A DNA stretch of 32,000 nucleotides from Promethearchaeum syntrophicum (GCF_008000775.2 NZ_CP042905.2:450001-482000); one strand, 5' to 3'; counted from the stretch's first letter, positions 3,170 to 29,728 are shown. A program made the numbers and translations. The notes: generated from the sequence alone by a model not told the origin.

Positions 3170-3868
3170 CTAAGAACCAATTTTTTTTCTGGTTAGGTAG
3201 CCACAATCTGGACAAACGAGATAGCCAAAACCAATATTATATTCGTCTGCTATCCCAACAATAGGTGAACCACAAGAAGGACATATTGGAGCATTGCTTG
3301 GAAACCATTGCCCCTTGACATTTGGAGTAGCTTTTAAATCATTAATCCAATTTTGGAATCTTCCAATAGCTTGATATTGGTTTTTTTCTTTTAATTTCTG
3401 ATTATATGATTTAGGTCTGGAAACGACCACTACCACAGATTTCATCTTATCGGGGGAATTTAATAAGGTCAAAGTTGGTAAAATGGCATTTTGCTTCATA
3501 TTTGAAAAAAAATCAAATAGTTCGGGGGGGCCTAATGCGACAACTGTTCCTTTTCCATGTGAATCTGGATGTCTTTCAAAAAGAATTTGGAAGATTCTAT
3601 CCTTAAAATCTCGCGCCCAAATTAAAATCCATAAATCGGGATTTAATTCCTTTCCTTGTTCATTAACTAATTGGATTAAACCCATTTCCACATAATAATG
3701 ATTTTCTTTTCTACATAAGAAATTAATATCTTCAAAGAATTTTCTCTCTACCAAAGGATATGATCTGAAAGATTCTATAACACTCTGCAAGCCTACTTTC
3801 GCCTTCGATTTTTGCCAACTCGTTTTAGTCGAGAGATAATACATATCTAAAAAAGGCGCTAATAACAA
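3170..3868 (-). CDS. hypothetical protein with C-terminal zinc ribbon
   Basis: 232-aa ORF. The C-terminus CPSCGSPIVG...VCPDCGY is a CxxC...CxxC ribbon. The track start at 3868 is TTG; an ATG at 3844 (MYYLSTK) is an alternative start. The gene is divergent from the E2/JAB/E1 operon. Confidence 0.55.
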   Translation of the reverse strand: MLLAPFLDMYYLSTKTSWQKSKAKVGLQSVIESFRSYPLVERKFFEDINFLCRKENHYYVEMGLIQLVNEQGKELNPDLWILIWARDFKDRIFQILFERHPDSHGKGTVVALGPPELFDFFSNMKQNAILPTLTLLNSPDKMKSVVVVVSRPKSYNQKLKEKNQYQAIGRFQNWINDLKATPNVKGQWFPSNAPICPSCGSPIVGIADEYNIGFGYLVCPDCGYLTRKKIGS

Positions 3869-3971
3869 ATAAAAATTCGCAAAAACTAAATTTTCATAGT
3901 TTTTATATAAAAAAGTAGAAAGTTATATAATAAAAACACCATTACTTATTAAAAGGCGAAGATGGAGAATT
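3869..3971. promoter_or_regulatory. divergent promoter region with two TATA-like boxes
   Basis: 103-nt spacer between head-to-head genes. It contains TTTTTATATAAAAAAG (about 3900-3915) and AGTTATATAATAAAAAC (about 3920-3936). GGAG lies 4 nt upstream of the ATG at 3972. No transcript data, so this is positional inference only. Confidence 0.3.
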
Positions 3972-4754
3972 ATGAAGCCCTTAATTGAAGAGATCAAAGA
4001 TATCTTAACTCCAAATAATTCAATTGGATTTGTTAAAGATAATAAAATATTCCAATTACAACCAATCTTGCCAATTTCTCAGTTTCTATCCATGGCTAAG
4101 GATCTTGATTCAGAAGGTCAAAAAAAATTTTTAAAATTTGTTAATAGCCCTAACACTGTTATATTTAATGGTGTCATCTATATCACAATAAAAGGATTAA
4201 ATTTGAAAGGACGATTAAAGGAAATACTTTCAATCTATCGTAACCACCTGAAAAACATAGTTGGAGATAAAAAAGCTCTAATTGACTTATATGAAAAAGT
4301 TCCTCCGGAAGACATCGCAAATTTAACTGAAGATCACGTTATTTTCGCAATGTTGGATGTTTTCCATTCTGATAAAAAAGAACTTGCAGCAATTCGTTAT
4401 TTACCGGATTATGAAATCCATTTCGAATCTAAAACTTATAAAATGCCTGGATGCATGCTCGTCGTACATATAGATCAAAATTTAGCCATTGGAGATCCTG
4501 AAGTTGTTGTTGACAATAAAAATTATGAACATCCTTTTGTATATAGGCATGATCATATGAGATTTGGTCAAAAAATATGCATGGGGTCTTTTTATTCATC
4601 AAAAGATCGCAAAAATTTCAATAAACTTCGATTTGCAAATACCATCAATAATTTGTTAAAACAAGCGGTTCAAATATTAGTATCGGGTTATAATCGAGGT
4701 GTTAGCCCTGCGAATGGGCATCTAACGAGTTCGCAATATAATAAATATCTATAA
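3972..4754 (+). CDS. candidate E2-like (UBC-like) conjugating protein, divergent
   Basis: 260-aa ORF preceded by GGAG. YEHPFVYRHDHMRFGQKICMGSF (His187-Pro188 ... Cys203) resembles the E2 HPN...G.ICL active-site region with a longer loop. It is the first gene of an operon with JAB and E1-like genes. The CDS itself is confident; the functional call is tentative. Confidence 0.45.
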   Translation: MKPLIEEIKDILTPNNSIGFVKDNKIFQLQPILPISQFLSMAKDLDSEGQKKFLKFVNSPNTVIFNGVIYITIKGLNLKGRLKEILSIYRNHLKNIVGDKKALIDLYEKVPPEDIANLTEDHVIFAMLDVFHSDKKELAAIRYLPDYEIHFESKTYKMPGCMLVVHIDQNLAIGDPEVVVDNKNYEHPFVYRHDHMRFGQKICMGSFYSSKDRKNFNKLRFANTINNLLKQAVQILVSGYNRGVSPANGHLTSSQYNKYL

Positions 4755-4797
4755 TTTATCTTTAAAATATCCAAAAATTCTTTCACAATGAAAAATA

Positions 4798-5781
4798 ATG
4801 TCAGATAAAAATAATAAATTGAAAATCAAAGATACATTGGATGATTTACTGGAAAATTCAACCAACAATAACAAAGATTCAAATTCAACCAACATTAGTA
4901 TAGGAAAATCTCCAAAAAAACTAAATAAAATTATAATCACAAGATCTGCATATAGAAAAATGATTATCATCGCGCAAGAAGTATCCAAATTATTAAATCA
5001 AAGTATGGAAGTTTATGCATTATGCATCGGTGATAACGGAATCATTGAAGATATATTAATTCCTCCTCAGAATGTAAGTTCGATTTCAATTCATATTAAT
5101 GCTTCCGATATTTTATCTTTAGTGCCCAATATTAGAAAAAATAATTTGAATATTATTGGATGGGTTCATTCACATGGGGATATGTCCGCTTTCTTCTCAA
5201 GTACAGATGATAGGAATCAAATCACTGTTTTAAATGATACATCGAACTATTCAGAAGTCGGAAATATTCGAGTAAAATATTGTTTTGGAATAACGGTTAA
5301 CTTAAGGGAAGAATTGTTTGGAATAGTAACCACACAATTTCCATCAAGTAATATTATCCACGAGAGAGCTATTTTTGAAATTAGAAGTTTTTTCCCTCCA
5401 GATTGGAATGAAAACGAGATACGAAATGAGATTTCTGCAGAATTAAAAGATAAAATAAGAAAAGGTAGGATTAGTCATAAGAATCATAATACTGTCGAAT
5501 TCGCAAATAATTACGATGAAGATTCTGAAATTTCAAAATTTGAAGATAAAAATCTTCTTTCATCCCGTGATCGTTATTTAATTAGCCTATTCCTTAAAAG
5601 AAATAATTTTTCAAATCCAAAAATAAAGAAACTTCTATTTAATTTTGTAAGATTTTTAAATATTAATAAAAATTGGACCAAAGAAACCAAAGAGAATAAA
5701 GAGAACAAAGAGAATCTAGAAAACAAAGTGATAAATGATATGAAGATAAATCAAGATAAAAAGGAGAATCAAGATGAGTGA
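4798..5781 (+). CDS. JAB/MPN (JAMM) metalloprotease domain protein, Rpn11/deubiquitinase-like
   Basis: Complete JAMM motif: Glu71 (SMEVYALC), then GWVHSHGDMSAFFSSTDD, which gives H124-x-H126-x7-S134-x2-D137. The roughly 130-aa C-terminal extension ends in a low-complexity KETKENKENKENLENK tail. Confidence 0.85.
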   Translation: MSDKNNKLKIKDTLDDLLENSTNNNKDSNSTNISIGKSPKKLNKIIITRSAYRKMIIIAQEVSKLLNQSMEVYALCIGDNGIIEDILIPPQNVSSISIHINASDILSLVPNIRKNNLNIIGWVHSHGDMSAFFSSTDDRNQITVLNDTSNYSEVGNIRVKYCFGITVNLREELFGIVTTQFPSSNIIHERAIFEIRSFFPPDWNENEIRNEISAELKDKIRKGRISHKNHNTVEFANNYDEDSEISKFEDKNLLSSRDRYLISLFLKRNNFSNPKIKKLLFNFVRFLNINKNWTKETKENKENKENLENKVINDMKINQDKKENQDE

Positions 5782-6697
5782 GATAAAATACGACCGACAA
5801 AGCAGAATTCCTGAATGGGATCAAACAAAATTATCAAGTGCAAAAGTAGCCGTCATAGGTGCAGGGGCTTTAGGAAATCATGTATGTCTTGGTTTAATAG
5901 GATTAGGTGTTGGATCAATTAAAATATTCGATTTTGATGAAATAGAAACTCATAACCTCAACCGACAATCCTTATTCCGTGAAGACGATATTGGACATAA
6001 TAAAGCTGAAGCTCTCGCGGAATTATTAAAGGAACGGAATTCATCAATTGAAATTATTGGAATTGATGAAAAAATCGAAGAAGATACTATCGAAGATATC
6101 ATTAGAGATGTGGATGTCATTATTGATTGTGTAGATCTCATTTTTGTGCGATATATTCTAAACAAATTATGCATTGAACGCGATATCCCTTTAATTCACG
6201 GTGGTATAAGCTGGACTGGAGGTCAAACAGGGATCTTAACAAGAAAAACACCTTGTATTAAATGTATCTATCCCGAAGCATTGCAGAAAGAAGAACTTGA
6301 TACCGAAACATCATGTATTAGGAACCCCGAAGCGAGTGTTGTATACATAAGCCAAATAATTGCAGGATTGATGGTCTTTAACGTTCGAAGAGTTCTTCTA
6401 CCACTTTCTTCGGATTTATACCCTCCTACAGGATTATACAAATTGGATCTCCGTTTAGAAAATCCATTTTATTTTGAAAATATAAAAAGAAAGAAAAAAT
6501 GTGATTGTGTGAAACTATTGAAGAAAGTAGATCCAAACATTCTAAAAGAAGAAAAAGAAATCCTTAAGAAATTAGAAAAAGAAAACCTGAAAGAACTTCA
6601 AAAAACTGTAGAATTGCAGACTAATGGAAAATTAAAAAAAAAAAAAACTTCTTCAATAAAGAAAAAAACATCCAAAAAACATCCTAAATCCAAATGA
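5774..6697 (+). CDS. E1-like ThiF/MoeB/UBA-family adenylyltransferase
   Basis: YDRQ...VAVIGAGALGNHVCLGLIGLGVGSIKIFDFDEIETHNLNRQ is the Rossmann GxGxxG plus NLNRQ adenylation signature. CIKC and CDC cysteine pairs look like a Zn site. The ATG overlaps the JAB stop by 8 nt (ATGAGTGA) and AGGAG lies upstream. The tail is Lys-rich. Confidence 0.85.
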   Translation: MSEIKYDRQSRIPEWDQTKLSSAKVAVIGAGALGNHVCLGLIGLGVGSIKIFDFDEIETHNLNRQSLFREDDIGHNKAEALAELLKERNSSIEIIGIDEKIEEDTIEDIIRDVDVIIDCVDLIFVRYILNKLCIERDIPLIHGGISWTGGQTGILTRKTPCIKCIYPEALQKEELDTETSCIRNPEASVVYISQIIAGLMVFNVRRVLLPLSSDLYPPTGLYKLDLRLENPFYFENIKRKKKCDCVKLLKKVDPNILKEEKEILKKLEKENLKELQKTVELQTNGKLKKKKTSSIKKKTSKKHPKSK

Positions 6698-6720
6698 AAA
6701 TTAAAAAAAAAGGATAATAA

Positions 6721-7593
6721 ATGACCAATCAAAACACTGAAGATCACCTAAAAAGAGCATTGAAAGAAGGAAACCTAATAAATGTTGGACAAAATTCAAT
6801 TTCAAAAGAAAATAAAAAAGGAATGATCTCCACCGATTCAAAATTCAATAAAACCTATTTTAAATATAATCTCCCCATCGGAATCGATTTCGGAAAATCA
6901 TTAAAACCAAATAATTTCCTTACAAGCTTGGAAATTCTAGATAGGATCCTTGAAATTCCCAATATTTCAGAACAAAATCGATTCAAATTAGAAAATTTAC
7001 GACTTTATTTAACTACCGGAAAAATTTGGCATTATAAACGTGAATTAAAAACATTATTAGAAGATGATATAATTAAACAAGAAAAAGCAAAAGAAACAAA
7101 GTCTCCTAAGGAAATAACTGAAAATACCTTTATCTCCCTTCTAATATCGTTACACTTTATCTTAACTCAAGCATCTATAACTAATGTCAAATGGGTTTCC
7201 CAAAATCAAATTCTAACTTATATCGAGTCAACGGATCAAAAAAAAATTCTTCATGAATGGAAAACTAAAAACTATGGAAAATTACCAGAGGACTTAATCT
7301 TTCTGTCATTAATCTCACAAACATTAATTCAAAAAATTTCACAGCTTAATATACCAGAAGATCAATATTGTCAATTAAATGATTTAAAAAACCTTGTAAT
7401 TTCTGCTAAATTTTCAAAAATCCTTAACATTTTATCCCTTAAATTAAATTCTTTATCTCCAATATATCTATCATCTATAAAATCTGCAAGTAACTCAAAA
7501 GATAAAGAAGCGACTAGACAAGTTTCATCTGACATTAACAATATCTTCATTTACAGAATTTTAGTTACTTTAAATATCCTCCAAAAAGAGTGA
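6721..7593 (+). CDS. hypothetical alpha-helical protein, fourth gene of the E2/JAB/E1 operon
   Basis: 290-aa ORF starting 23 nt after the E1-like stop, on the same strand, with AAGGA upstream. No motif recognised. Confidence 0.6.
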   Translation: MTNQNTEDHLKRALKEGNLINVGQNSISKENKKGMISTDSKFNKTYFKYNLPIGIDFGKSLKPNNFLTSLEILDRILEIPNISEQNRFKLENLRLYLTTGKIWHYKRELKTLLEDDIIKQEKAKETKSPKEITENTFISLLISLHFILTQASITNVKWVSQNQILTYIESTDQKKILHEWKTKNYGKLPEDLIFLSLISQTLIQKISQLNIPEDQYCQLNDLKNLVISAKFSKILNILSLKLNSLSPIYLSSIKSASNSKDKEATRQVSSDINNIFIYRILVTLNILQKE

Positions 7594-7900
7594 ATTAAAA
7601 AAATTTAACATACCGACTATGATTTCACTCGATCATTTCCAAATTTAAAAAATGGGAAATGATTCCCTTTCATAAATAAAGAAATTTGCACAAAAATGAT
7701 TCCATATCTTCGATTTTGAAGATTTGATCTTAAAAAAAACCTCATGCATCCTTTTTCACCGAAAATCCCTACCTTAAAGCTTTTGACTTCCATGTTTTTT
7801 TGTAGTTAGAATGCAAATTTTTTAAGGTGAAAAAATAACTCTTTAAGTAAGATAATCCTTTTCTTTAATATCTTAATTAATTTTAAAATGGTGAAAATAA

Positions 7901-9046
7901 TTGGTAGAAGAATACGACTTCCTTGCTGCAAAACCCCTCGTTGTTGATAACGGTACTGGTATCTCAAAAAACGGGTTTGCAGGTGAAGACCAACCTCGAT
8001 CTGTCTTTCCAACGCTTATTGGATATCCTAAATATACGTCTATCATGACTGACGTTGAACATTATACTCGTGAATATTATATCGGAGAAGAAGCCTTACA
8101 ACTTAAAGGTGTCTTAAAACTTATGTTTCCGGTTGAACACGGTGTAATTGAAGATTGGATGGCTATGGAAAAGATTTGGCATTACACATTCTATACAGAC
8201 CTCCGTGTTGATCCTTCAGAACACCCTGTGCTTTTAACTGAAGCCCCATTAAACCCACGACCAAACCGGGAAAAAATGGCAGAAATTATGTTTGAAACCT
8301 TTAATGTGCCTGCTCTCTACGTTGCAATGCAAGCAGTATTATCTTTATATGCATCCGGTCGAACTACTGGTTGTGTTATTGATATCGGTGATGGTGTTTC
8401 TCACGTTGTCCCGATTTATGAAGGTTTCGCTTTATCACATGCTATCTCAAGACTTGATCTTGCAGGCCGTGATATTACAACATACCTACAAAGACTCCTG
8501 CGCCAAAAAGGATTCTCCTTTACAACCTCCGCAGAAAAAGAAATTGTCCGAGACATCAAAGAAAAATTATGCTACATCGCTCTTGACCCTGAAAAAGAAA
8601 TTATGTTGTCAAAGAAAGTAGCTGGAATGGAAAAAGTTTACATGCTTCCAGATGGTGAGACCATTACTGTTTCCGTTGAACGATTTTTGGCCCCAGAATG
8701 CTTCTTCAACCCTAGTGTCATTGGAAAAGAGTTGGAACCTTTGGATGATGTTATCTGTAGTGCAATCAAACAGTGCGATGTCGACTTAAGACGTGATCTT
8801 TACGGCAATATAGTCCTTTCCGGTGGGTCAACCATGTATCCTGGCCTCAAAGAAAGACTTACAAAAGAAATCAAGGAACAAATCCCAGAATCAGTTGATG
8901 TAAAAATTATTGCTCCTCCGGAACGTATGTATTCTGTCTGGATTGGTGGATCTATCTTGTCATCGTTGAAAACCTTCCAGAGAATGTGGGTTACGCGAAG
9001 AGAATATAAGGAAATTGGCCCTAGCATCATTCACAGATGTTTCTAA
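7901..9046 (+). CDS. actin (eukaryote-like; lokiactin-type)
   Basis: 381 aa with long blocks identical or near-identical to eukaryotic actin: [126 protein letters not shown]. The start is TTG, preceded by GGTGA with a 6-nt spacer. Confidence 0.95.
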
Positions 9047-11547: not shown

Positions 11548-12951
11548 TTAATCAAAAAGTGAAACAAGCTCCAAGAATAAAACTTGGAGATTTGGAAATT
11601 CTTTTTTAATGTAAATGCTACGACGGGCTAATGCAATGGACACAGCTTTATTAAATGCAGCTTTTGAAGATAATAAGCCGATTTCAATATATTTTTTCCG
11701 AAATAATATTTTTGCCTTAGGATCTTTATGTAAAAGTTCAATTTCTTCAGTTAATTTCTCTAGAACCTTAAAAATCTCTTTATCTTTCCGCTCAGGTTCA
11801 TAAGTTTTTTCCATAAATTGCTTTAGTCGGTGAAGGAGAATAGTATAAAATTCAAAATAGGTAGTGATATCATCGAAATAAATCCGAAATTGAGATCTTT
11901 TGAATAATGTATATACCATTTGCCAATAAAAGGGATATTCTAAAGCGGATGGATATAAAACTTGATTTATTTTCAGAGCCAGGAGGCTGTTTTTTTCACG
12001 TTCAGACATTAAACCTTTCCGTAATTTTAAAACCTCTTCTCTTAGTAAGGGGGGTTCATTAAGCGGATCTAATTCCTGCATATTAATAGGAGGATAAAAT
12101 TTTACCAAAGAACGAGACATATCTTTTTGAGGAAAAGAATTACTTGGTATCACGGGAATTCCATATTTATTATGAAAATATGCTAATAATTGTGGAAATG
12201 GAATGAGAAAATCATATTTTTTTTTACCAAAGATAAACGGAACACGATTTTGATGTTTATTAAAGTAATCATGCATTACGAAGACGACTCGATTTTGTTT
12301 CAAATGTTTTTCAATTTCCTTTTCTAGATCGGAAAACTTCCCAGTTACAATGGCAAAGACATTATCCCACATTTTTAAAAATTGACGAAGGAGAAATTCA
12401 TTTTCGGGAGAAACAATACCTACAACTTCTACTTTTTGGGTTTTATTATCGATTGTAACCGTTTTTCTCAGTAAAGCAGAAGTAGGATGATATAATTCCC
12501 CTAAATGTATAATAGGGACTAACACACCTTTCTTTTTTTGTAAAGCGGCTTCAATATGCTCAAAACCTTCCATTTTAATGAAACGTGAGATATTTTTGGG
12601 GGAATGGTTTGGCATGAAAAATGTGATTTCAAAAAAGAACTCAAAGATATAGGAAATGATTTGTAACGCCCACCTTTTAAGGTTAATATTATGTTTTTCT
12701 AAAAAACTTGGAGGATACAGAAATTTCCAGGCATTTTCTAATGTAGGAAAACCTTTTTTAACAATTAAAGGGCCAAAAATAATAGTTAAGAATCGAAATC
12801 GCAAAAAACTTTTCCGTTCAAAGAATTTATGTCGTCCTGTTGATTGAATGAAATGAGTTATCCTAAAAAAGATATTATAATCAAAGAAATTTTTATGGAT
12901 TTTCATGGAAGTGTTCTTATCTAATCTTCTATCTCGATTTGTTACCGCCAA
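11548..12951 (-). CDS. hypothetical protein; possible LpxL/HtrB-like (LPLAT superfamily) acyltransferase
   Basis: 467 aa. KKKGVLVPIIHLGELYH aligns by eye with the (G)vIlltpHfGNWE block of lipid-A-type lysophospholipid acyltransferases, but the acidic residue of HX4D/E is not in register. The track start is TTG at 12951; an ATG at 12906 (MKIHKNFF) is an alternative start. Confidence 0.35.
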   Translation of the reverse strand: MAVTNRDRRLDKNTSMKIHKNFFDYNIFFRITHFIQSTGRHKFFERKSFLRFRFLTIIFGPLIVKKGFPTLENAWKFLYPPSFLEKHNINLKRWALQIISYIFEFFFEITFFMPNHSPKNISRFIKMEGFEHIEAALQKKKGVLVPIIHLGELYHPTSALLRKTVTIDNKTQKVEVVGIVSPENEFLLRQFLKMWDNVFAIVTGKFSDLEKEIEKHLKQNRVVFVMHDYFNKHQNRVPFIFGKKKYDFLIPFPQLLAYFHNKYGIPVIPSNSFPQKDMSRSLVKFYPPINMQELDPLNEPPLLREEVLKLRKGLMSEREKNSLLALKINQVLYPSALEYPFYWQMVYTLFKRSQFRIYFDDITTYFEFYTILLHRLKQFMEKTYEPERKDKEIFKVLEKLTEEIELLHKDPKAKILFRKKYIEIGLLSSKAAFNKAVSIALARRSIYIKKEFPNLQVLFLELVSLFD

Positions 12952-16680: not shown

Positions 16681-17583
16681 TTGATTGTGGGTACAAGAAT
16701 AATTCCTTATAATAATGGAGAAATCCTTGAATGGCGTTGGTGGGCTGAGAGTAAATTAATTTCATTTCAATTATTTGCTTCATGTTTTCTCATAGATGGT
16801 TTATTAATTGATTCTAATGCGCCCGGAAGTGAAATGGATCTTCAAAAATATGTAAAAAAACTTGGAGGTAAAAATCACATTAGCTCTTGTTTCTTAACCC
16901 ATTTTCATGAAGATCATGCTGGAGGTTCTCCAATGCTTAAAAAAGAGTTTGATATTCCAATATATGCTTCTCCACTTACAGTTCCATATTTGAGTAAAGG
17001 ATATAAATATCGATTTTATAGAAAAACTTACTGGGGAAGACATGGCCAGAAACCAATAGATGTTGAACCTGTAGATGGACCAATAATAACAAAATCAGGT
17101 AAATATTCATTTGAATTATTTCCTATGCCTGGTCACTCACCAGATTTAACGGCAATAATCGATAAAAAAAATCAGATAGCATTTGTTGGGGATGCAATTA
17201 TGCATAAGTATGGATATACTTTTGGAGGATCTTCTCCTGATCTTTATGAGGATATCTCACAAATTTATAATTCTCAGAAATCTCTCTATAAAATAACCGA
17301 TGGAATGGATGATCTTAAAATATATGTTGCTCATGTTGGAGAGGTTAATCGGGATTTCATTGCAGAGAAAATTAAAGAAATTGAAAACCTACACAAAAAT
17401 GCTCATAAATTCCAGAAAGAGCTAATTAATAATGGATATAAAAAACAGAGTAAAATTTTAAAGGAGATCGTAAAAAAAATGTGGAGAAAAGGAGAATTAC
17501 TGCAATTTAAAATATTATCTATGGGAGAAATATCACGTACGAATTTAGTAGCTACTTTACTTAAATGGCCACTTGATAATTAA
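16681..17583 (+). CDS. MBL-fold metallo-hydrolase
   Basis: THFHEDHAGG (HxHxDH), later MPGHSPD and VGDAI. The start is uncertain (TTG 16681 or GTG 16687). Confidence 0.8.
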   Translation: MIVGTRIIPYNNGEILEWRWWAESKLISFQLFASCFLIDGLLIDSNAPGSEMDLQKYVKKLGGKNHISSCFLTHFHEDHAGGSPMLKKEFDIPIYASPLTVPYLSKGYKYRFYRKTYWGRHGQKPIDVEPVDGPIITKSGKYSFELFPMPGHSPDLTAIIDKKNQIAFVGDAIMHKYGYTFGGSSPDLYEDISQIYNSQKSLYKITDGMDDLKIYVAHVGEVNRDFIAEKIKEIENLHKNAHKFQKELINNGYKKQSKILKEIVKKMWRKGELLQFKILSMGEISRTNLVATLLKWPLDN

Positions 17584-20500
17584 TTTTCTCCCAATAAGTG
17601 TTCTCCTGTTAATTCTTCAACGCGTCGAATAATTTCACTAATATGTGGGAATGTTTTAATTCCTATATCCAGATTTTTAATAAGACTAATTGTTTCTTTA
17701 AACATTTTTTGACTCAGATACACAACCAGTAGGTTATTGTACATACGGGCATAATTTGCTTGATTTGAGTCGTATTTTAAAGCTTTTTCATAAGCTTCAA
17801 TTGCTTTTGGGTAATTTTCTTTAATAGCATATGAATTTGCTAATATGAACCAAGGAGAGAAAAAATGTGGGTATTGCTTTGTGATTTTTAAGGTTCGCTC
17901 CATGATTGTATCAATTTTTTTTGTAGGATCTGCAGAAATATTATAATATAACGATTCAATATCGGCTAATTCTTCTATAAATTCAAGGTAAATAGCTGTA
18001 ATTTTCATTAGTTCTGGATATTTTTCTTCAGAGCATATATTCTTCATCATCAAGAAATATTTCTTTTTATTTTCTCCCAACATTCTTTGATTTTCAAACA
18101 AGGTTTTACTTAAATGTTTTAATTCGATTAAAATATTTTCTAAATTCTGTTTATCCTCGGAATTCTGCTCTAAAATATTCTCAAAAAGTAGTTTTAGTGG
18201 TTTAAAAGTCGATTTATATGTCAAATAATTTGTAGGACTCATCTGAATTAACCATTTCTGAGTTTCCTGAAATACAGAGTAAGTCCCTTGCTTTAAATCT
18301 GCAAGATATTTGACTAAAAATGTTTTAGGTAAGAAAATATCCCTAATTTCTAAGAGTTTTGTTTTCACTTCAATAATTTTTTCGTAATTGGGAATAATTT
18401 TCTCAATAAATAATGATGTATTTTTCATCATTTCAATTCTTAAGTTAAATCTTTCCCCCTCTTGTATATTTAATTCGTATATTGCTATGAAATGTTGATA
18501 AATTTCTTCAAAAATTCTTTTATTGCAAAGAACTATGTCCTCACCTAAATTAGAAATTATATTTTTAAATTTATGAGAATAACCTTTCTGTACAATATTA
18601 ATTAAAGCTATTCGGAGAGTTTTATTATATATTTCTAGGATTTTTTTAATGTTTCTTTTTGATAAATTTAATTTTTTAATATCTTCTTGTAGGAAAGAAA
18701 AAACTTGTTGAAAGATTTGAAATTGTATATAATCTTCAAATATCTTGTTCAAGATTTTCTTCATTTCATTAAACAATTTCTCTCCATTCATTTCAAATAC
18801 GAAATGCGGTAATTCTAAATATTTCTTTTTCATTTCTTCAAGATTGAAATGCTCACATGACCAAATAAAATCTTTAATATGTAAGATATTGAGCATATTC
18901 TGCAAATTTTCTCTATATTCAACAAAATCAATCCAAGTATCAATAATATGTTTATGGGTCTCGAACTCATTTTCTGGCAAATTTCCTGAAAGATACCATT
19001 GATTTAATAAAATTTTGATTTTTTTTTTTATGGATAGTAATAAAATGGGTTGTAAAGATTCTTTATTTAACCAAGGTTTTATTTCATTCAATGTTTTTGT
19101 GGCATTTTTAAAGAAAGCAGGATATTCTTGGAATAATTTGACACTATTTGTAAAAATCTCAACGTAATTAACACAAAATTCTAAAGTCATTTCGGTATTC
19201 TTGTAATTTAGAGTTAAAAATCTAAAGATATGTTCCCCAACTTTGGGTAATCTCTTATAAAACATTACAAGAGAGCCGTTTTCTGCAAATTGATATAGAA
19301 TTTTATAAAAAATTCTCTCTGAAAGAATTTTCTTATCAATCATACTTAGAAAAGTAAGAAAATCAATAATTTTATTGTTCAGATACGCAATAAAATCCAG
19401 ATTGTTAGATAGAGCTTGAATTTTTTCTCTAAATTTCTTTATTAGATCCTTCATTTCGGATTTTTCGAATTTTTCTTTATGGGATTTTAGAATTACTATA
19501 AATTCTCGAAAGAAAGTTAAATATTTAGTATTTGGGAATGAAATATCTCTTGATCCTTCCCTTTTATGATAAATTTCGATTAGAATTTCAAGCATCAATG
19601 TGAAAATATTATAAGAACGAAAGTATGGATGCTCTTCAAGATATTTCGTGATATAACTCCAAATTTTAGCAAAATTTTGTAATCTCATTTGTTCGATTAT
19701 TTTATTAGTAATTGCGACTACTTGGGGTTTTTCTAGTACTTTAATTAGCTCATTAGATGGATTCCAGTATTTTATAATCAAATCTACACTGGATATTATC
19801 GTTTCACTATTTGAATAATACGAATCAAATAAATAAACCATTGTATGGATAAGTAAACTTTTCCTTTTTGAGAATAAATCTAATTTTGAAATTATTTTTA
19901 AAATTGAAGGGACATTTCCAACATTACCTAATTTAAATTGTTCTTTCAGAAAAATACAATAATTATCTTCTAATTTTTCAATAATTTGCGTTTTTAAGAC
20001 AGGATCCGTGTCAAGATTTAGGAGATCTCTCAAAATATTTATTCGTTGATTAACAGTATCAATTCCCTCAATTCTTTGTAGAGAAATTTTTACATATATT
20101 TTTAGATCTTTAGAATTTCTTATCTGGGTGAAATTTTTATTGTTAAGCATTAAAATACCTGATTCAATTCTAGATAGCACTTCGTTTACGAATTCTTCAC
20201 AATCTTCCTTTAATTTCAAATCATACTTCTTTTTCTTTCTTTTTCGTCTACTACTCTGAAAAAAATCTTGATCCAGAGAAAATAAAGTCCGCAAAATGGA
20301 ATCTTGTTCATTTTTATCTCTTCGGTTTTTGAAAATAACTAAATTCCCAAGCTCTAAATTTTCTTTTAATTGGATACCAATTTTAACTCCGAAATCCTCC
20401 ATTATCTCTACATTTGATTTTCGAGATTCAGTTCCAGATATTAATTGTGATTCATCTAAAAATTGAACCCATCTGATCAAATAGATCTCATTTTTAAAAA

Positions 20501-21110
20501 TTATAACTCCAATTTGATTCATAGAAAAAAGCTTCTGTAATGAAAGGTTTAATCCTTCTATGAATTGAACAATTTTTTCATACTTCTGATAAGTTACAAA
20601 TTCCTGTTGAAAATTTGTCTCGGTCATTATTCCTTGTATTTTATCTATCGAAGAAAGACCTTTTGAACAATAAACTTTACCTTCAGCTAAGATCTTATTT
20701 GGATCTTTCAGAAATTCTTCGAGATCTTTAAGATTTTCTAGTTTTTCACTTTCATCCTTATTATTTCCTTGGAAAACAATAATATCATTATCCAAAATAA
20801 TATTTACGAACGGAGCCTTAAGATCAAATTTCTGAATAAAATTCCATTGTGTGGATATTTCTTCTTTATTCTTTTCAAGTTCCTCTAAAATTAAATTATA
20901 CAATTCATTATTAATAGCAGTAAAACTTTCTTTTTTTAGAAATTTAATCAGATTTTGGATTTCCTTCTTTTGAATTAACCCCAAAATAATTTTTTGTTTC
21001 TCTGATAAGATATGATCATAATTTTCTATAATATTTTCTACCCAATCAAGTAGTTCTACAAATCTTTTTGATGTAAGAAAATTATATAAATCATATATCA
21101 TGAAAATCAC
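17580..21110 (-). CDS. giant (1176 aa) helical-repeat protein with C-terminal TPR repeats
   Basis: Uninterrupted 3.5-kb ORF. The C-terminus PWFILANSYAIKENYPKAIEAYEKALKYDSNQANYARMYNNL fits the TPR consensus. The body is Leu/Ile/Lys/Glu-rich and helical. An N-terminal mixed region of about 270 aa has beta-like segments, followed by a basic RRKRKKKK patch. Confidence 0.7.
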   Translation of the reverse strand: MIFMIYDLYNFLTSKRFVELLDWVENIIENYDHILSEKQKIILGLIQKKEIQNLIKFLKKESFTAINNELYNLILEELEKNKEEISTQWNFIQKFDLKAPFVNIILDNDIIVFQGNNKDESEKLENLKDLEEFLKDPNKILAEGKVYCSKGLSSIDKIQGIMTETNFQQEFVTYQKYEKIVQFIEGLNLSLQKLFSMNQIGVIIFKNEIYLIRWVQFLDESQLISGTESRKSNVEIMEDFGVKIGIQLKENLELGNLVIFKNRRDKNEQDSILRTLFSLDQDFFQSSRRKRKKKKYDLKLKEDCEEFVNEVLSRIESGILMLNNKNFTQIRNSKDLKIYVKISLQRIEGIDTVNQRINILRDLLNLDTDPVLKTQIIEKLEDNYCIFLKEQFKLGNVGNVPSILKIISKLDLFSKRKSLLIHTMVYLFDSYYSNSETIISSVDLIIKYWNPSNELIKVLEKPQVVAITNKIIEQMRLQNFAKIWSYITKYLEEHPYFRSYNIFTLMLEILIEIYHKREGSRDISFPNTKYLTFFREFIVILKSHKEKFEKSEMKDLIKKFREKIQALSNNLDFIAYLNNKIIDFLTFLSMIDKKILSERIFYKILYQFAENGSLVMFYKRLPKVGEHIFRFLTLNYKNTEMTLEFCVNYVEIFTNSVKLFQEYPAFFKNATKTLNEIKPWLNKESLQPILLLSIKKKIKILLNQWYLSGNLPENEFETHKHIIDTWIDFVEYRENLQNMLNILHIKDFIWSCEHFNLEEMKKKYLELPHFVFEMNGEKLFNEMKKILNKIFEDYIQFQIFQQVFSFLQEDIKKLNLSKRNIKKILEIYNKTLRIALINIVQKGYSHKFKNIISNLGEDIVLCNKRIFEEIYQHFIAIYELNIQEGERFNLRIEMMKNTSLFIEKIIPNYEKIIEVKTKLLEIRDIFLPKTFLVKYLADLKQGTYSVFQETQKWLIQMSPTNYLTYKSTFKPLKLLFENILEQNSEDKQNLENILIELKHLSKTLFENQRMLGENKKKYFLMMKNICSEEKYPELMKITAIYLEFIEELADIESLYYNISADPTKKIDTIMERTLKITKQYPHFFSPWFILANSYAIKENYPKAIEAYEKALKYDSNQANYARMYNNLLVVYLSQKMFKETISLIKNLDIGIKTFPHISEIIRRVEELTGEHLLGEN

Positions 21111-27516: not shown

Positions 27517-28116
27517 CTATGCAATCAGTTTCCGGCCACAATACGTACAGAAGAAAAGTTCTTTTGCTATAGTTTCTCCACAATGGGGGCATTTCTTCAA
27601 GCTCGATTTAAGAATACTCTCGGTTAGAAGATCAAAAATCTTCTCAACATTTTGCCCACTCTTGCTTGAACATTCGATAAAATGGTCAATTTTATTTGAA
27701 GCTTGGAAATTTTTACCATCTTCTTCATTAACTTCCTTTTGATCGCTTAGATCTGATTTGGAACCAATAAGTAATTTTGAAATTTTGCCGCTGGCTGAAT
27801 CAATTAAGTTCATCCATTCGTCAAGTTCATTAAAACTCGAGCGGCTTGTCATATCATATAAAATAAGGGCACCTGATGCGCCTGATAAATAACCTGGAAA
27901 TAGGCTTCTGAACTTTTCTTCGCCTGCGAAATCCCAGATGCTCAAATGAACATCTTGACCCGAGACGTTCATGTTTTTCGTCATGAAGTCGACTCCTATC
28001 GTCGAAAGTGTGTTAATATCGAATTTGCCACTAACATATCTCCGAATCAGCGATGTTTTTCCAACGTTTTTGGCACCAGCGACTATAATTTTTAATTTAA
28101 TCATATGAGTTATCAC
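27517..28116 (-). CDS. Ras-superfamily small GTPase, Rab-like, with C-terminal zinc ribbon
   Basis: G1 GAKNVGKT; switch I LSTIGVDF (Rab-type IGVDF); G3 WDFAGEE; G4 GSKSDL; G5 ECSSKSG; C-terminal CPHCGE...CTYCG. The track start is GTG at 28116; the ATG at 28104 (MIKLKIIV) is more likely. Confidence 0.85.
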   Translation of the reverse strand: MITHMIKLKIIVAGAKNVGKTSLIRRYVSGKFDINTLSTIGVDFMTKNMNVSGQDVHLSIWDFAGEEKFRSLFPGYLSGASGALILYDMTSRSSFNELDEWMNLIDSASGKISKLLIGSKSDLSDQKEVNEEDGKNFQASNKIDHFIECSSKSGQNVEKIFDLLTESILKSSLKKCPHCGETIAKELFFCTYCGRKLIA

Positions 28117-28486: not shown

Positions 28487-29728
28487 ATGAAAATTCCCGG
28501 TAGTTTCTTCGAAATAGATCTTGTCATTAGCAAAGATAATTTGTTAGAGTTTAAAATAACGAAAAATAAAGAGGTAAAATATAGCGTAAACCCGATGGAT
28601 TTTTCGGAAATCGAATATGATTTGCAATCATTTCTTGAAGATAATAGTGTTTTTCTACCGAAAAACAGGTTTAAACTCGTGTTAGAAAGCTTAGAAGTCC
28701 TTTATTTGGATCTAAATAAAAAACTGCAAAAATTGAAAGATCGTGATGCAAATAGTCCAATAATTTCAGAGGAACAAGAAATCTCTTTTGCTCAACGCGT
28801 TTTTCAGGCTCAAAAAGTGTTGTTGATGGGGGGGGAGGGTAAATCATCAATTTATCAAGTAATATTTGAAGGAAAGTTGCCTCATGAAACTAATGTTATA
28901 AAACACACAAGAGGTATTGAAAAACATGAAATTTCTTTTCCATCATTCTCGAGTGCCGGCTCTTCTAAGCAGAAATTGCTTTTATGGGATTTTGGATCAA
29001 AAAAACCGACTTCTGATGATTATAAAAATGCGACTCTGCTTCTTTTTGTAATAGATGCCTATGATGTACATAATTATGAATTATATCGTGATCAACTCCA
29101 TGAAACAATTGCAATGATGAAAAAACATGGGTCTCGTCCCAAATTTTTGGGTCGTAATCAAAGCAATATCTTTTGTTTTATTCATAAAATGGATCGTTTT
29201 ACGAATGCTGATGATCAATTCAGATCTCTTGTAGAATATTTTAAACTTAATCCCAAAACGAAAGAAAAATCATATGAAATCAAATTCTTTGCCACTTCTA
29301 TTTATGATTCGTCGATCTACAGTGCATGGGCTAAGATAATTGAAATTTTAATGCCTAAATCCTCTAAATTAAATCAGTTATCTAATAAATTAAAGGATGA
29401 TTTAGGTTTGTACGCAGCAATGATTATAGAAAAAAGCACGGGATTACCTATTGCATCATCTAAAACTTTGTTGGATGATAATTCATTGGTTGGAAGCACT
29501 AATCGTATTTTACTAACAACAGAAAAAGTTTTGCCTGAATATGAATTATCTTCTTTAGATACACTTAAAATTGAAACTGCAAATGGGATTTTACAACTAC
29601 GGATTTTTGAACAAATTTACGTATACGTATTGATCCTGATTTATCCTCCCCATGAAAGGAAGATCTCAACACCTGAAGGGGAAAATATCCTTCAAGAATT
29701 TATAAGTGAAATGAGAAAAAGTATATAA
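28487..29728 (+). CDS. Rag/Gtr1-like GTPase with C-terminal roadblock-like domain and N-terminal extension
   Basis: KVLLMGGEGKSSIYQVIF resembles Gtr1/RagA KxLLMGxSGSGKSS. LLLWDFG corresponds to G3. CFIHKMD is the HKxD G4 variant typical of Rag/Gtr. The last 120 aa or so (LGLYAAMIIEKSTGLPIASS...LQLRIFEQIYVYVLI) have a roadblock/LC7-like alternating pattern. The first 105 aa or so are unassigned. Confidence 0.6.
   Translation: MKIPGSFFEIDLVISKDNLLEFKITKNKEVKYSVNPMDFSEIEYDLQSFLEDNSVFLPKNRFKLVLESLEVLYLDLNKKLQKLKDRDANSPIISEEQEISFAQRVFQAQKVLLMGGEGKSSIYQVIFEGKLPHETNVIKHTRGIEKHEISFPSFSSAGSSKQKLLLWDFGSKKPTSDDYKNATLLLFVIDAYDVHNYELYRDQLHETIAMMKKHGSRPKFLGRNQSNIFCFIHKMDRFTNADDQFRSLVEYFKLNPKTKEKSYEIKFFATSIYDSSIYSAWAKIIEILMPKSSKLNQLSNKLKDDLGLYAAMIIEKSTGLPIASSKTLLDDNSLVGSTNRILLTTEKVLPEYELSSLDTLKIETANGILQLRIFEQIYVYVLILIYPPHERKISTPEGENILQEFISEMRKSI

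Follow-up and report, generated by a model that had tools for sequence, protein, structure and literature searches.

Our analysis of a 32,000-nucleotide (nt) stretch of the Promethearchaeum syntrophicum chromosome (GCF_008000775.2, NZ_CP042905.2:450001-482000; this whole stretch is called the window here) suggests that a four-gene operon at 3972-7593 encodes the enzymes of a reversible protein-tagging system. With moderate confidence, we favour the view that the operon is a vertically inherited cassette of the Lokiarchaeia, that its ancestral gene order was ubiquitin-like protein (Ubl), E2, JAB protease and E1, and that the gene for the tag was lost from the operon in the clade to which P. syntrophicum belongs (the core clade). 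The genes, here called g1 to g4, are co-directional on the + strand and would encode an E2-like protein, a JAMM protease, an E1-like adenylating enzyme and a helical protein; neither a ubiquitin gene nor a small RING E3 is present in the cluster. Gene g4 is DSAG12_00955 of P. syntrophicum MK-D1 (100% identity), the Asgard archaeon that was cultured first, in agreement with the original prediction, made from the sequence alone, that the locus belongs to an Asgard archaeon. That prediction proposed a non-canonical conjugation and deconjugation module, possibly with an operon partner as the modifier, and compared it with bacterial conflict systems. Its account of the JAB and E1 enzymes is supported by our results, as is the conservation of gene order on which it was made to depend, whereas the operon-partner modifier and the conflict framing are not. 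We found no description of this operon, its locus tags or the E2-like family in the literature.

Organization of the operon

The four genes, their spacers and every motif listed in the original prediction were reproduced at the same residues using an open reading frame (ORF) list and a script. The spacers measure 43 nt between g1 and g2, -8 nt between g2 and g3 (the overlap ATGAGTGA) and 23 nt between g3 and g4. The features of the operon are as follows:

3972-4754, + strand: g1, 260 residues, a two-domain protein with a probable E2-like C-terminal domain
4530-4580, + strand: proposed active-site loop of g1, codons His187-Pro188-Phe189 through Cys203, the proposed catalytic cysteine
4798-5781, + strand: g2, 327 residues, a predicted JAMM/MPN+ metalloprotease with low-complexity N- and C-terminal extensions
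5167-5208, + strand: JAMM motif of g2, codons H124-S-H126-x7-S134-xx-D137
5774-6697, + strand: g3, 307 residues, an E1-like adenylating enzyme of the ThiF family with a single domain and a C-terminal tail rich in Lys
6314-6316, + strand: codon of g3 Cys181, the candidate thioester-forming cysteine, in the crossover loop
6721-7593, + strand: g4, 290 residues, a fast-evolving protein modelled as all-helical over residues 63-290

The original prediction had noted that the operon lacks a modifier and a RING protein, and an ORF scan agreed. No RING-like ORF lies in the operon, and no ORF of at least 40 residues in any frame of the window has a diglycine (GG) within its last eight residues, with the sole exception of a 43-residue stop-to-stop stretch at 11966-12097. 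A 58-residue ORF at 7617-7793 (- strand) was considered as a small modifier and set aside, because its conservation is weak even among members of the genus and it lacks a GG end.

The JAMM protease and the E1-like enzyme

The JAB and E1 assignments made in the original prediction were upheld by profile matches and by invariant catalytic residues. The g2 protein scored 32.2 bits against Pfam Prok-JAB (cut-off 25), and residues E71, H124, H126, S134 and D137 are shared without exception by 12 orthologues and relatives. From these residues, g2 is predicted to be an intact JAMM protease. The g3 protein scored 185.7 bits against Pfam ThiF (PF00899) and carries the motifs GAGALG (29-34) and NLNRQ (61-65) together with cysteines 161/164, 181 and 243/245. 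The glycines of its GxGxxG motif (G29/G31/G34), D53, N61, R64, Q65, K77 and D121 are invariant in 12 sequences, as are the zinc tetrad C161/C164/C243/C245 and the crossover-loop C181. Cys181 stands in the context [TQ]-S-C in 12 orthologues, including two relatives that have a GG-ending protein in the operon. By analogy with ThiF and Uba5-type E1s, Cys181 is a candidate thioester-forming cysteine.

The g3 protein falls below every NCBIfam equivalog cut-off for ThiF (164.7 bits, cut-off 275.25), MoeB (136.2, cut-off 449), UbaA (117.7, cut-off 450) and MoeZ (95.5, cut-off 647). Among solved structures it matches E. coli ThiF (1zud, 92.6 bits), Uba1 (84.6), MccB (80.5) and MoeB (74) about equally, and Cap2 structures at ~1e-10 to 1e-11. 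The whole protein is a single ThiF domain of 307 residues, without an inserted CYS domain. Neither a sulfur carrier (ThiS/MoaD/CysO) nor genes of the corresponding pathways were found in the window or the syntenic loci, which is where the search was made. The original prediction had held that a sulfur-carrier-activating E1 with carriers nearby would speak against conjugation; the locus and its syntenic counterparts show no such carrier, and g3 scores below the cut-offs for these enzymes.

The E2-like protein

The g1 protein contains HPF at residues 187-189 followed by Cys203, one of its only two cysteines (161 and 203). Searches of Pfam, NCBIfam, PADLOC, PHROGs and PDB sequences gave no match to g1. 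When 5.8 billion clusters were searched by word index, 40 close homologues were returned, all from Lokiarchaeota/Promethearchaeota and all unnamed, and a full hidden Markov model (HMM) search of 1.84 billion representatives yielded a rare family, with 53 proteins. Residues Y185, H187, P188, F189, V190 and C203 are invariant in 33 close homologues (alignment A1). Distant homologues align to residues ~118-262 only; in an alignment of this C-terminal domain (A5; 23 diverse sequences, 25-63% identical to g1), Y185, H187, P188, C203 and G239 show no variation. The conservation of His187 and Cys203, on which the original prediction had made its E2 reading depend, therefore extends to close and diverse homologues alike. 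No conserved Glu or His follows Cys203 in either the 33- or the 23-sequence alignment.

The spacing between HP[FYH] and the cysteine ranges from 7 to 15 residues across the family and is 13 in the window protein. Many distant members carry HPFVFRDGKMCLG or a similar sequence (HPF-x7-C), which has the same spacing as HPNINSNGSICLD (HPN-x7-C) in E2 enzymes. Since these distant relatives have the canonical HPF-x7-C, the enlarged loop already recognized in the original prediction is a clade-specific insertion. Further members of the family could be sought with the signature Y-x-H-P-[FYH]-x(7-15)-C...G-Y...P.

The AlphaFold2 (AF2) model of g1 has a predicted local distance difference test (pLDDT) score of 86.4 and two domains. 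The N-terminal domain (~1-110) is modelled as two beta-hairpin-plus-helix repeats and the C-terminal domain (~112-260) as a helix and six strands that lead to the HPF loop, with a hairpin between this loop and Cys203 and helices after the cysteine. The N-terminal domain was also considered as a hidden beta-grasp modifier and rejected on its predicted secondary structure. In a Foldseek search of the PDB, the top matches of the g1 model were the Tsg101 UEV domain (E 0.16), UbcH5c (0.22), UbcH10 (0.30, probability 0.63), Cdc34 and UBE2O, none of them significant. Comparison of g1 with four human E2s by hhalign gave a single alignment, in which HPF falls on HPN and Cys203 on the catalytic cysteine. 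Its register (PEVVV...YEHPFV...GQKIC on PPKVAF...IYHPNI...GSIC) continues through E2 helix 2, with an E-value of 0.56 for the close homologues and 0.0062 (probability 6%) for the diverse alignment. When the family profile was run against 177,635 PDB sequences, one of the four matches at E <= 10 was UBE2W, in the same register. The g1 protein itself has no match to Pfam UQ_con at E <= 1; one of the 23 diverse members reaches E 0.21 with that model, and none of the 23 matches the Prok-E2 families.

Each of these tests is weak alone, but they agree with one another and with the E2 hypothesis put forward before they were made. Based on this agreement, we infer an E2 fold and consider it likely that g1 carries an E2-like catalytic domain with Cys203 in the position of the catalytic cysteine.

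The C-terminus of g1 consists of a conserved QYxKY(L/I) followed by variable tails. In the wider family, 8 of 52 members end in GG plus 2-6 residues (P0068, P0071, P0082, P0086, P0100, P0102, P0104 and P0110; for example NRGG-FI and ERGG-EN), where 1.3 would be expected, and a count of 8 was reached in none of 2000 shuffles. One of them, P0100, is encoded on a contig (L021) where a separate small GG-ending protein lies upstream of the E2-like gene.

The g1 model also matched two unnamed viral proteins in BFVD (A0A1B0WLX5, 420 residues, and A0A516ML27, 542 residues; E ~3e-4, probability at least 0.99). No viral sequence relatives of g1 were found in INPHARED phages (tblastn with distant relatives), IMG/VR (pattern scans with two alignments) or PHROGs.

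Conservation of the locus in Lokiarchaeia

The order g0/g1/g2/g3/g4, where g0 is the divergent gene upstream of g1, is fixed in ten Lokiarchaeial genomes in which g1 identity to the window protein falls as low as 54%. These are MK-D1, three other Promethearchaeum species, Candidatus Harpocratesius repetitus, Lokiarchaeum ossiferum, two 'binchicken' metagenome-assembled genomes (MAGs), MAG HM1_B6_4 and a JGI contig. Since the same order recurs in all ten, the arrangement is not due to chance, and the conservation in other genomes on which the original prediction depended is present. A scan of genome contigs with alignment A1 found the family in Lokiarchaeia only. The surroundings are also retained: in most core-clade genomes the upstream genes include an FGGY kinase and a GDPD, and in four the actin gene is downstream. 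The adjacency to actin seen in the window recurs in two other Promethearchaeum genomes and in the core-clade MAG L017, and the actin gene is ~5 kb off in L. ossiferum. Taken together, the locus is part of the stable, vertically inherited core genome and sits in a housekeeping neighbourhood, not a mobile island.

The genes evolve at different rates. In comparisons with L. ossiferum, conservation is high for g1 (312 bits) and g3 (397 bits) and lower for g2 (170 bits), and g4 is fast-evolving (73 bits). None of the ten core-clade loci has a small GG-ending ORF within ~7 kb of the operon. In L. ossiferum (locus L001), a rhodanese gene at 5374-5850 (- strand) lies between the FGGY kinase and GDPD genes, ~2 kb from the operon; the MK-D1 window has none.

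Distant relatives and their small GG-ending proteins

Outside the core clade, eight genomic contexts of g1 relatives were readable, and in all eight the E2-like gene has JAB, E1 or both as neighbours. Four contexts also have an upstream gene for a protein of ~100-130 residues that ends in GG. The gene orders are as follows:

L004, a deep-branching 'Lokiarchaeota' MAG (g1 34% identical): 104-residue protein ending REHRGG-L, E2-like, JAB, E1, 141-residue protein, 989-residue tetratricopeptide repeat (TPR) protein
L011, estuary-sediment MAG GCA_001595785.1: 134-residue protein ending QEGG-LKLYM, E2-like, JAB fusion (950 residues), tandem two-domain E1, helical protein, ClpB-like ATPase
L021, short contig from run SRR22315509: 101-residue protein ending exactly KQKGG, E2-like
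L023, short contig from run SRR15425353: 108-residue protein ending RRHTGG-A, 82-residue ORF, E2-like, start of a gene resembling the L022 JAB fusion
L008 and L022, metagenome contigs: E2-like, then JAB
L024 and L025, MAGs GCA_964451135.1 and GCA_048886485.1: E2-like, then E1

The order in the GG-bearing relatives is the Ubl-E2-JAB-E1 order of the bacterial Bil system. The label 'ubiquitin-like' is applied to the upstream proteins on account of their size, position and diglycine end. In the family of the L004 protein, for which seven clusters were found, LLREH[RK]GG is kept and the tail after it varies (L, N, IF, Q or 28 residues). This is a hallmark of Ubl precursors that are trimmed, and it suggests that these proteins may be tag precursors. 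These neighbourhoods are our most informative evidence: they indicate that the E2-like family works together with a small protein ending in GG, in support of the conjugation module that was originally proposed.

Two of the metagenome contigs carry further features. In L008, the JAB gene (6679-8299) is split over the overlapping frames 6679-7491 and 7211-8299, which could reflect a frameshift, a sequencing error or recoding, and a TFIIB-like gene is present on the same contig. L022 carries a dUTPase and a DNA methylase.

Other genes of the locus

No usable match to g4 was found in Pfam, NCBIfam, PADLOC, PHROGs or PDB sequence searches, and its homologues are confined to Lokiarchaeia. True homology (E 6e-26 to 9e-8) was established for the genes that take its position in L. 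ossiferum, Harpocratesius and L007. Invariant residues are clustered within its first 63 positions: L10, A13, G17, G23, Y49, N50, P52, I53, G54, D56, F57, K59 and P63. The AF2 model of g4 has low confidence (pLDDT 60.3) and shows disorder at residues 19-55 followed by a helical bundle, with no beta-grasp fold and no meaningful PDB fold match. The conserved N-terminal segment (~10-63) is mostly predicted to be disordered, and in this model it resembles a docking peptide or an acceptor site. A role for g4 as a hidden beta-grasp modifier was rejected on its all-helical predicted secondary structure. None of the operon partners has a conserved C-terminal glycine, and the C-termini of g0, g2 and g4 vary freely in the core clade. 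The suggestion that the modifier is an operon partner is not supported by these results. The proteins encoded 3' of E1 in L004 (141 residues) and L011 (259/273 residues) were not detected by the g4 HMM and are equivalent to g4 by position only.

The remaining features of interest around the operon are as follows:

3170-3868, - strand: g0, 232 residues, divergent to g1, with a C-terminal CxxC...CxxC zinc ribbon
3869-3971, no strand: g0/g1 intergenic region, 103 nt, AT-rich
7901-9046, + strand: actin gene (Pfam Actin, 436 bits)
17580-21110, - strand: TPR protein, 1176 residues, TPR repeats towards the C-terminus, perhaps a partner encoded away from the operon

At the same place in the nine other core-clade genomes, g0 is recovered at 246-489 bits and is better conserved than g1-g4. 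Its only matches are to zinc ribbons, and its ribbon has four cysteines and is not a RING. The g0 protein may or may not be part of the system. Divergent regulators occupy the matching position in bacterial BilABCD operons. The intergenic region contains TTATATAA ~50 nt upstream of the g1 start codon, and from its sequence it is the likely site of divergent archaeal promoters.

The 1176-residue TPR protein is homologous to the 989-residue TPR protein of the L004 operon (BLASTP, 60.1 bits, E 5e-13, 24% identity over 384 residues), with 25.4 bits as the best of 100 locally shuffled sequences. From this similarity, it may be a partner or target that has moved 10 kb away. A shared N-terminal domain in g1 and this TPR protein was considered, and the HMM score was not significant.

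The actin gene lies 307 nt 3' of g4 on the same strand. G+C content is 28-31% throughout the window except in the actin gene, where it is markedly higher (0.40). The window also encodes a small GTPase of the Ras family with a zinc ribbon fused to its C-terminus (27517-28116, - strand) and a Gtr1/RagA-like GTPase (28487-29728, + strand), both of them typical Asgard eukaryote-signature genes unrelated to the operon.

Discussion

Our studies have shown that the operon has intact catalytic motifs, conserved sequence and synteny, and relatives that are linked to GG-ending proteins. Among known systems, the one most similar in its components and their order is BilABCD of bacteria (Bacterial ISG15-like; operon class 6C/CEHH of Iyer, Burroughs and Aravind), which consists of a Ubl, a CEHH-type E2, a JAB protease and a tandem E1 in the constant order bilA-B-C-D (PMC10557695). 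The window has the E2-JAB-E1 part of this order, and L004 and L011 have the full Ubl, E2, JAB and E1. Like BilD, the E1 of L011 is a ThiF protein with two domains in tandem. The JAB enzyme of Bil trims the tail of its Ubl, with which the GG-plus-tail precursors in the relatives fit, and class 6C was likewise first described without a Ubl. There are also clear differences. The g1 protein has its histidine before the cysteine (HP[FYH]...Cys) and lacks the Cys-x5-Glu-x-His-x4-His of BilB, and no BilB structure was among the 50 listed Foldseek matches or the PDB sequence matches of g1. BilD combines tandem inactive and active adenylation domains with an inserted CYS domain, whereas g3 is a single domain. 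The ten core loci lack a Ubl gene and have the extra helical g4, and the operon lies in an archaeal core genome, not a defence island.

Based on these observations, we propose that g3 would adenylate the C-terminal glycine of a ubiquitin-like protein and probably load the tag onto Cys181. The tag would then move to Cys203 of the E2-like protein and from there onto a target lysine. The JAMM protease would trim the tag precursor and later strip the tag off its target. The g4 protein may bind the enzymes through its conserved disordered N-terminal motif and act as an adaptor, a regulator or the preferred target. The ancestral cassette would have had the Ubl-E2-JAB-E1 order of BilABCD. In the core clade, which includes MK-D1 and L. 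ossiferum, the tag would be supplied from elsewhere in the genome. On our reading, the modifier gene was lost from the cassette in this clade and the enzymes were retained, so that the tag most likely has its gene at another site. MK-D1 encodes and expresses a ubiquitin homologue (PMC7015854; 10.1101/2025.11.01.685982), and Lokiarchaeota are reported to have a separate ubiquitin gene region (PMC9192718), so the operon looks like a second system.

Several observations weigh against this proposal. The Asn of the E2 HPN motif is replaced by Phe, Tyr or His throughout the g1 family, although the His and Pro are invariant. The C-terminal domain model has six strands ahead of the HPF loop, where UBC has four, and no fold or profile match of g1 to E2 reached significance. 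In the core-clade MAG L017, the JAB gene is missing and E1 follows directly after g1 at ~120 nt (7789-7912), with g0, g4 and actin in place. No modifier was identified in MK-D1, nor was a member of the L004-type GG protein family found there. Finally, comparison of that family with ubiquitin/NEDD8, ThiS and MoaD by hhalign was not significant, and the small upstream proteins of L004, L011 and L021 have no detectable similarity to one another.

With this in mind, we considered how else the same enzymes might be used. One scheme that we judge unlikely is that the core-clade cassette works without a beta-grasp tag: the substrate of the E1 would be the C-terminus of an ordinary protein (an operon partner or some other protein of the cell), much as Cap2 activates a cGAS-like enzyme, the E2-like protein would ligate protein to protein, and the JAB enzyme would reverse the reaction, with the g4 motif and its invariant Lys59 as a docking or acceptor site. 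No modifier gene is present in or near the operon in ten genomes, g3 matches Cap2-type PADLOC models (E down to 1.5e-21), and the tails of 8 of 52 g1-family members mean that GG ends on proteins other than Ubls do occur in this family. Nevertheless, a conserved C-terminal glycine is lacking in g0, g2 and g4, and g1 ends in QYxKY(L/I) and its variable tails. GG-tailed E2-like relatives can also have a separate small GG protein, as in L021, and the E1 and E2 are separate, unlike the Cap2-type fusion, with no CD-NTase. If the scheme were true, the closest cultured relatives of eukaryotes would possess a housekeeping form of Cap2-like protein-protein ligation.

Sulfur-carrier chemistry is an alternative that we regard as quite improbable, in which a ThiF/MoeB-type E1 would thiocarboxylate a MoaD/ThiS/CysO-like carrier, the JAMM enzyme would release the product as Mec+ does for CysO, and g1 would be an accessory protein and not an E2. 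In NCBIfam and among PDB sequences, g3 indeed matches ThiF and MoeB best, it is a minimal E1 of one domain without an inserted Cys domain, and a rhodanese gene lies upstream of the operon in L. ossiferum. All of the ThiF/MoeB/MoeZ/UbaA equivalog cut-offs are missed by wide margins, however, and the Uba1 score of g3 nearly equals that of ThiF. Neither a carrier gene nor any cysteine synthase, thiazole or molybdopterin gene lies in the window or the syntenic loci, and the MK-D1 window lacks the rhodanese. Sulfur pathways also have no place for an invariant partner with the HP-x-Cys signature of g1. It is also doubtful that the cassette is an antiviral or conflict system of the Bil/CBASS (cyclic-oligonucleotide-based antiphage signalling system) kind, which would share the mechanism proposed above and tag viral proteins for defence. 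Its parts and order do match BilBCD (PMC10557695), the contexts of L022 (dUTPase, DNA methylase) and L008 (TFIIB-like gene) look mobile or viral, and the g1 model has its two unnamed viral matches in BFVD. In contrast, the operon keeps one fixed place between FGGY kinase/GDPD and actin across Lokiarchaeial genera, in a region of even GC content where no genes for defence, integrases or effectors occur. PADLOC gave no match for g1, g2 or g4, and searches of INPHARED phages, IMG/VR and PHROGs found no relatives. The conflict-system framing of the original prediction does not fit such a stable housekeeping context.

We therefore return to the tagging cassette with a tag encoded elsewhere, which can be compared with other known systems besides Bil. 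The canonical operon of Caldiarchaeum and Asgard archaea (ubiquitin, E1-like, UBC E2, small RING E3 and Rpn11-like JAMM) is likewise an archaeal E1/E2/JAMM set, and its JAMM enzyme is expected to process the ubiquitin precursor (PMC5654768, PMC6043591). The operon described here differs in having no ubiquitin, no RING and an E2-like protein that UQ_con does not see. Type II CBASS Cap2/Cap3 also combines E1, E2 and JAB with no ubiquitin-like protein in the operon; however, Cap2 is an E1-E2 fusion that acts on an adjacent CD-NTase, whereas E1 and E2 are separate here. The neighbouring genes have no nucleotidyltransferase or effector match in Pfam, and PADLOC matches outside the E1 are negligible (E 0.026 and worse). 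The Bub systems resemble the operon as diverged prokaryotic E1/E2/Ubl cassettes with non-canonical E2s (PMC11601596). They differ in using oxyester intermediates, an E1 without a catalytic cysteine and a serine protease, while both enzymes here have invariant cysteines and the protease is of the JAMM type. In haloarchaea, the SAMP/UbaA/HvJAMM1 system pairs a single-domain MoeB/ThiF-like E1 with a JAMM enzyme acting on small GG-ending modifiers (PMC4443979). Sampylation needs no E2, in contrast to the present operon, where the best-conserved companion of the E1 is an E2-like protein whose cysteine is invariant.

Conclusions

MK-D1 and L. ossiferum are cultured Asgard archaea used to reason about the origins of eukaryotic cell biology, and both carry the operon in the same chromosomal place. 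If our proposal is true, Lokiarchaeia run a second, non-canonical tagging system beside their eukaryote-like ubiquitin genes, built around an E2-like family that is not recognized by any database model. This raises the question of which Gly-Gly-ending protein of MK-D1 is loaded by the neighbours of DSAG12_00955, and onto what. With such a system, the growing set of ubiquitin-like cascades in prokaryotes (Bil, Bub and Cap2), so far tied to antiviral defence, would gain a branch that is archaeal and apparently housekeeping.

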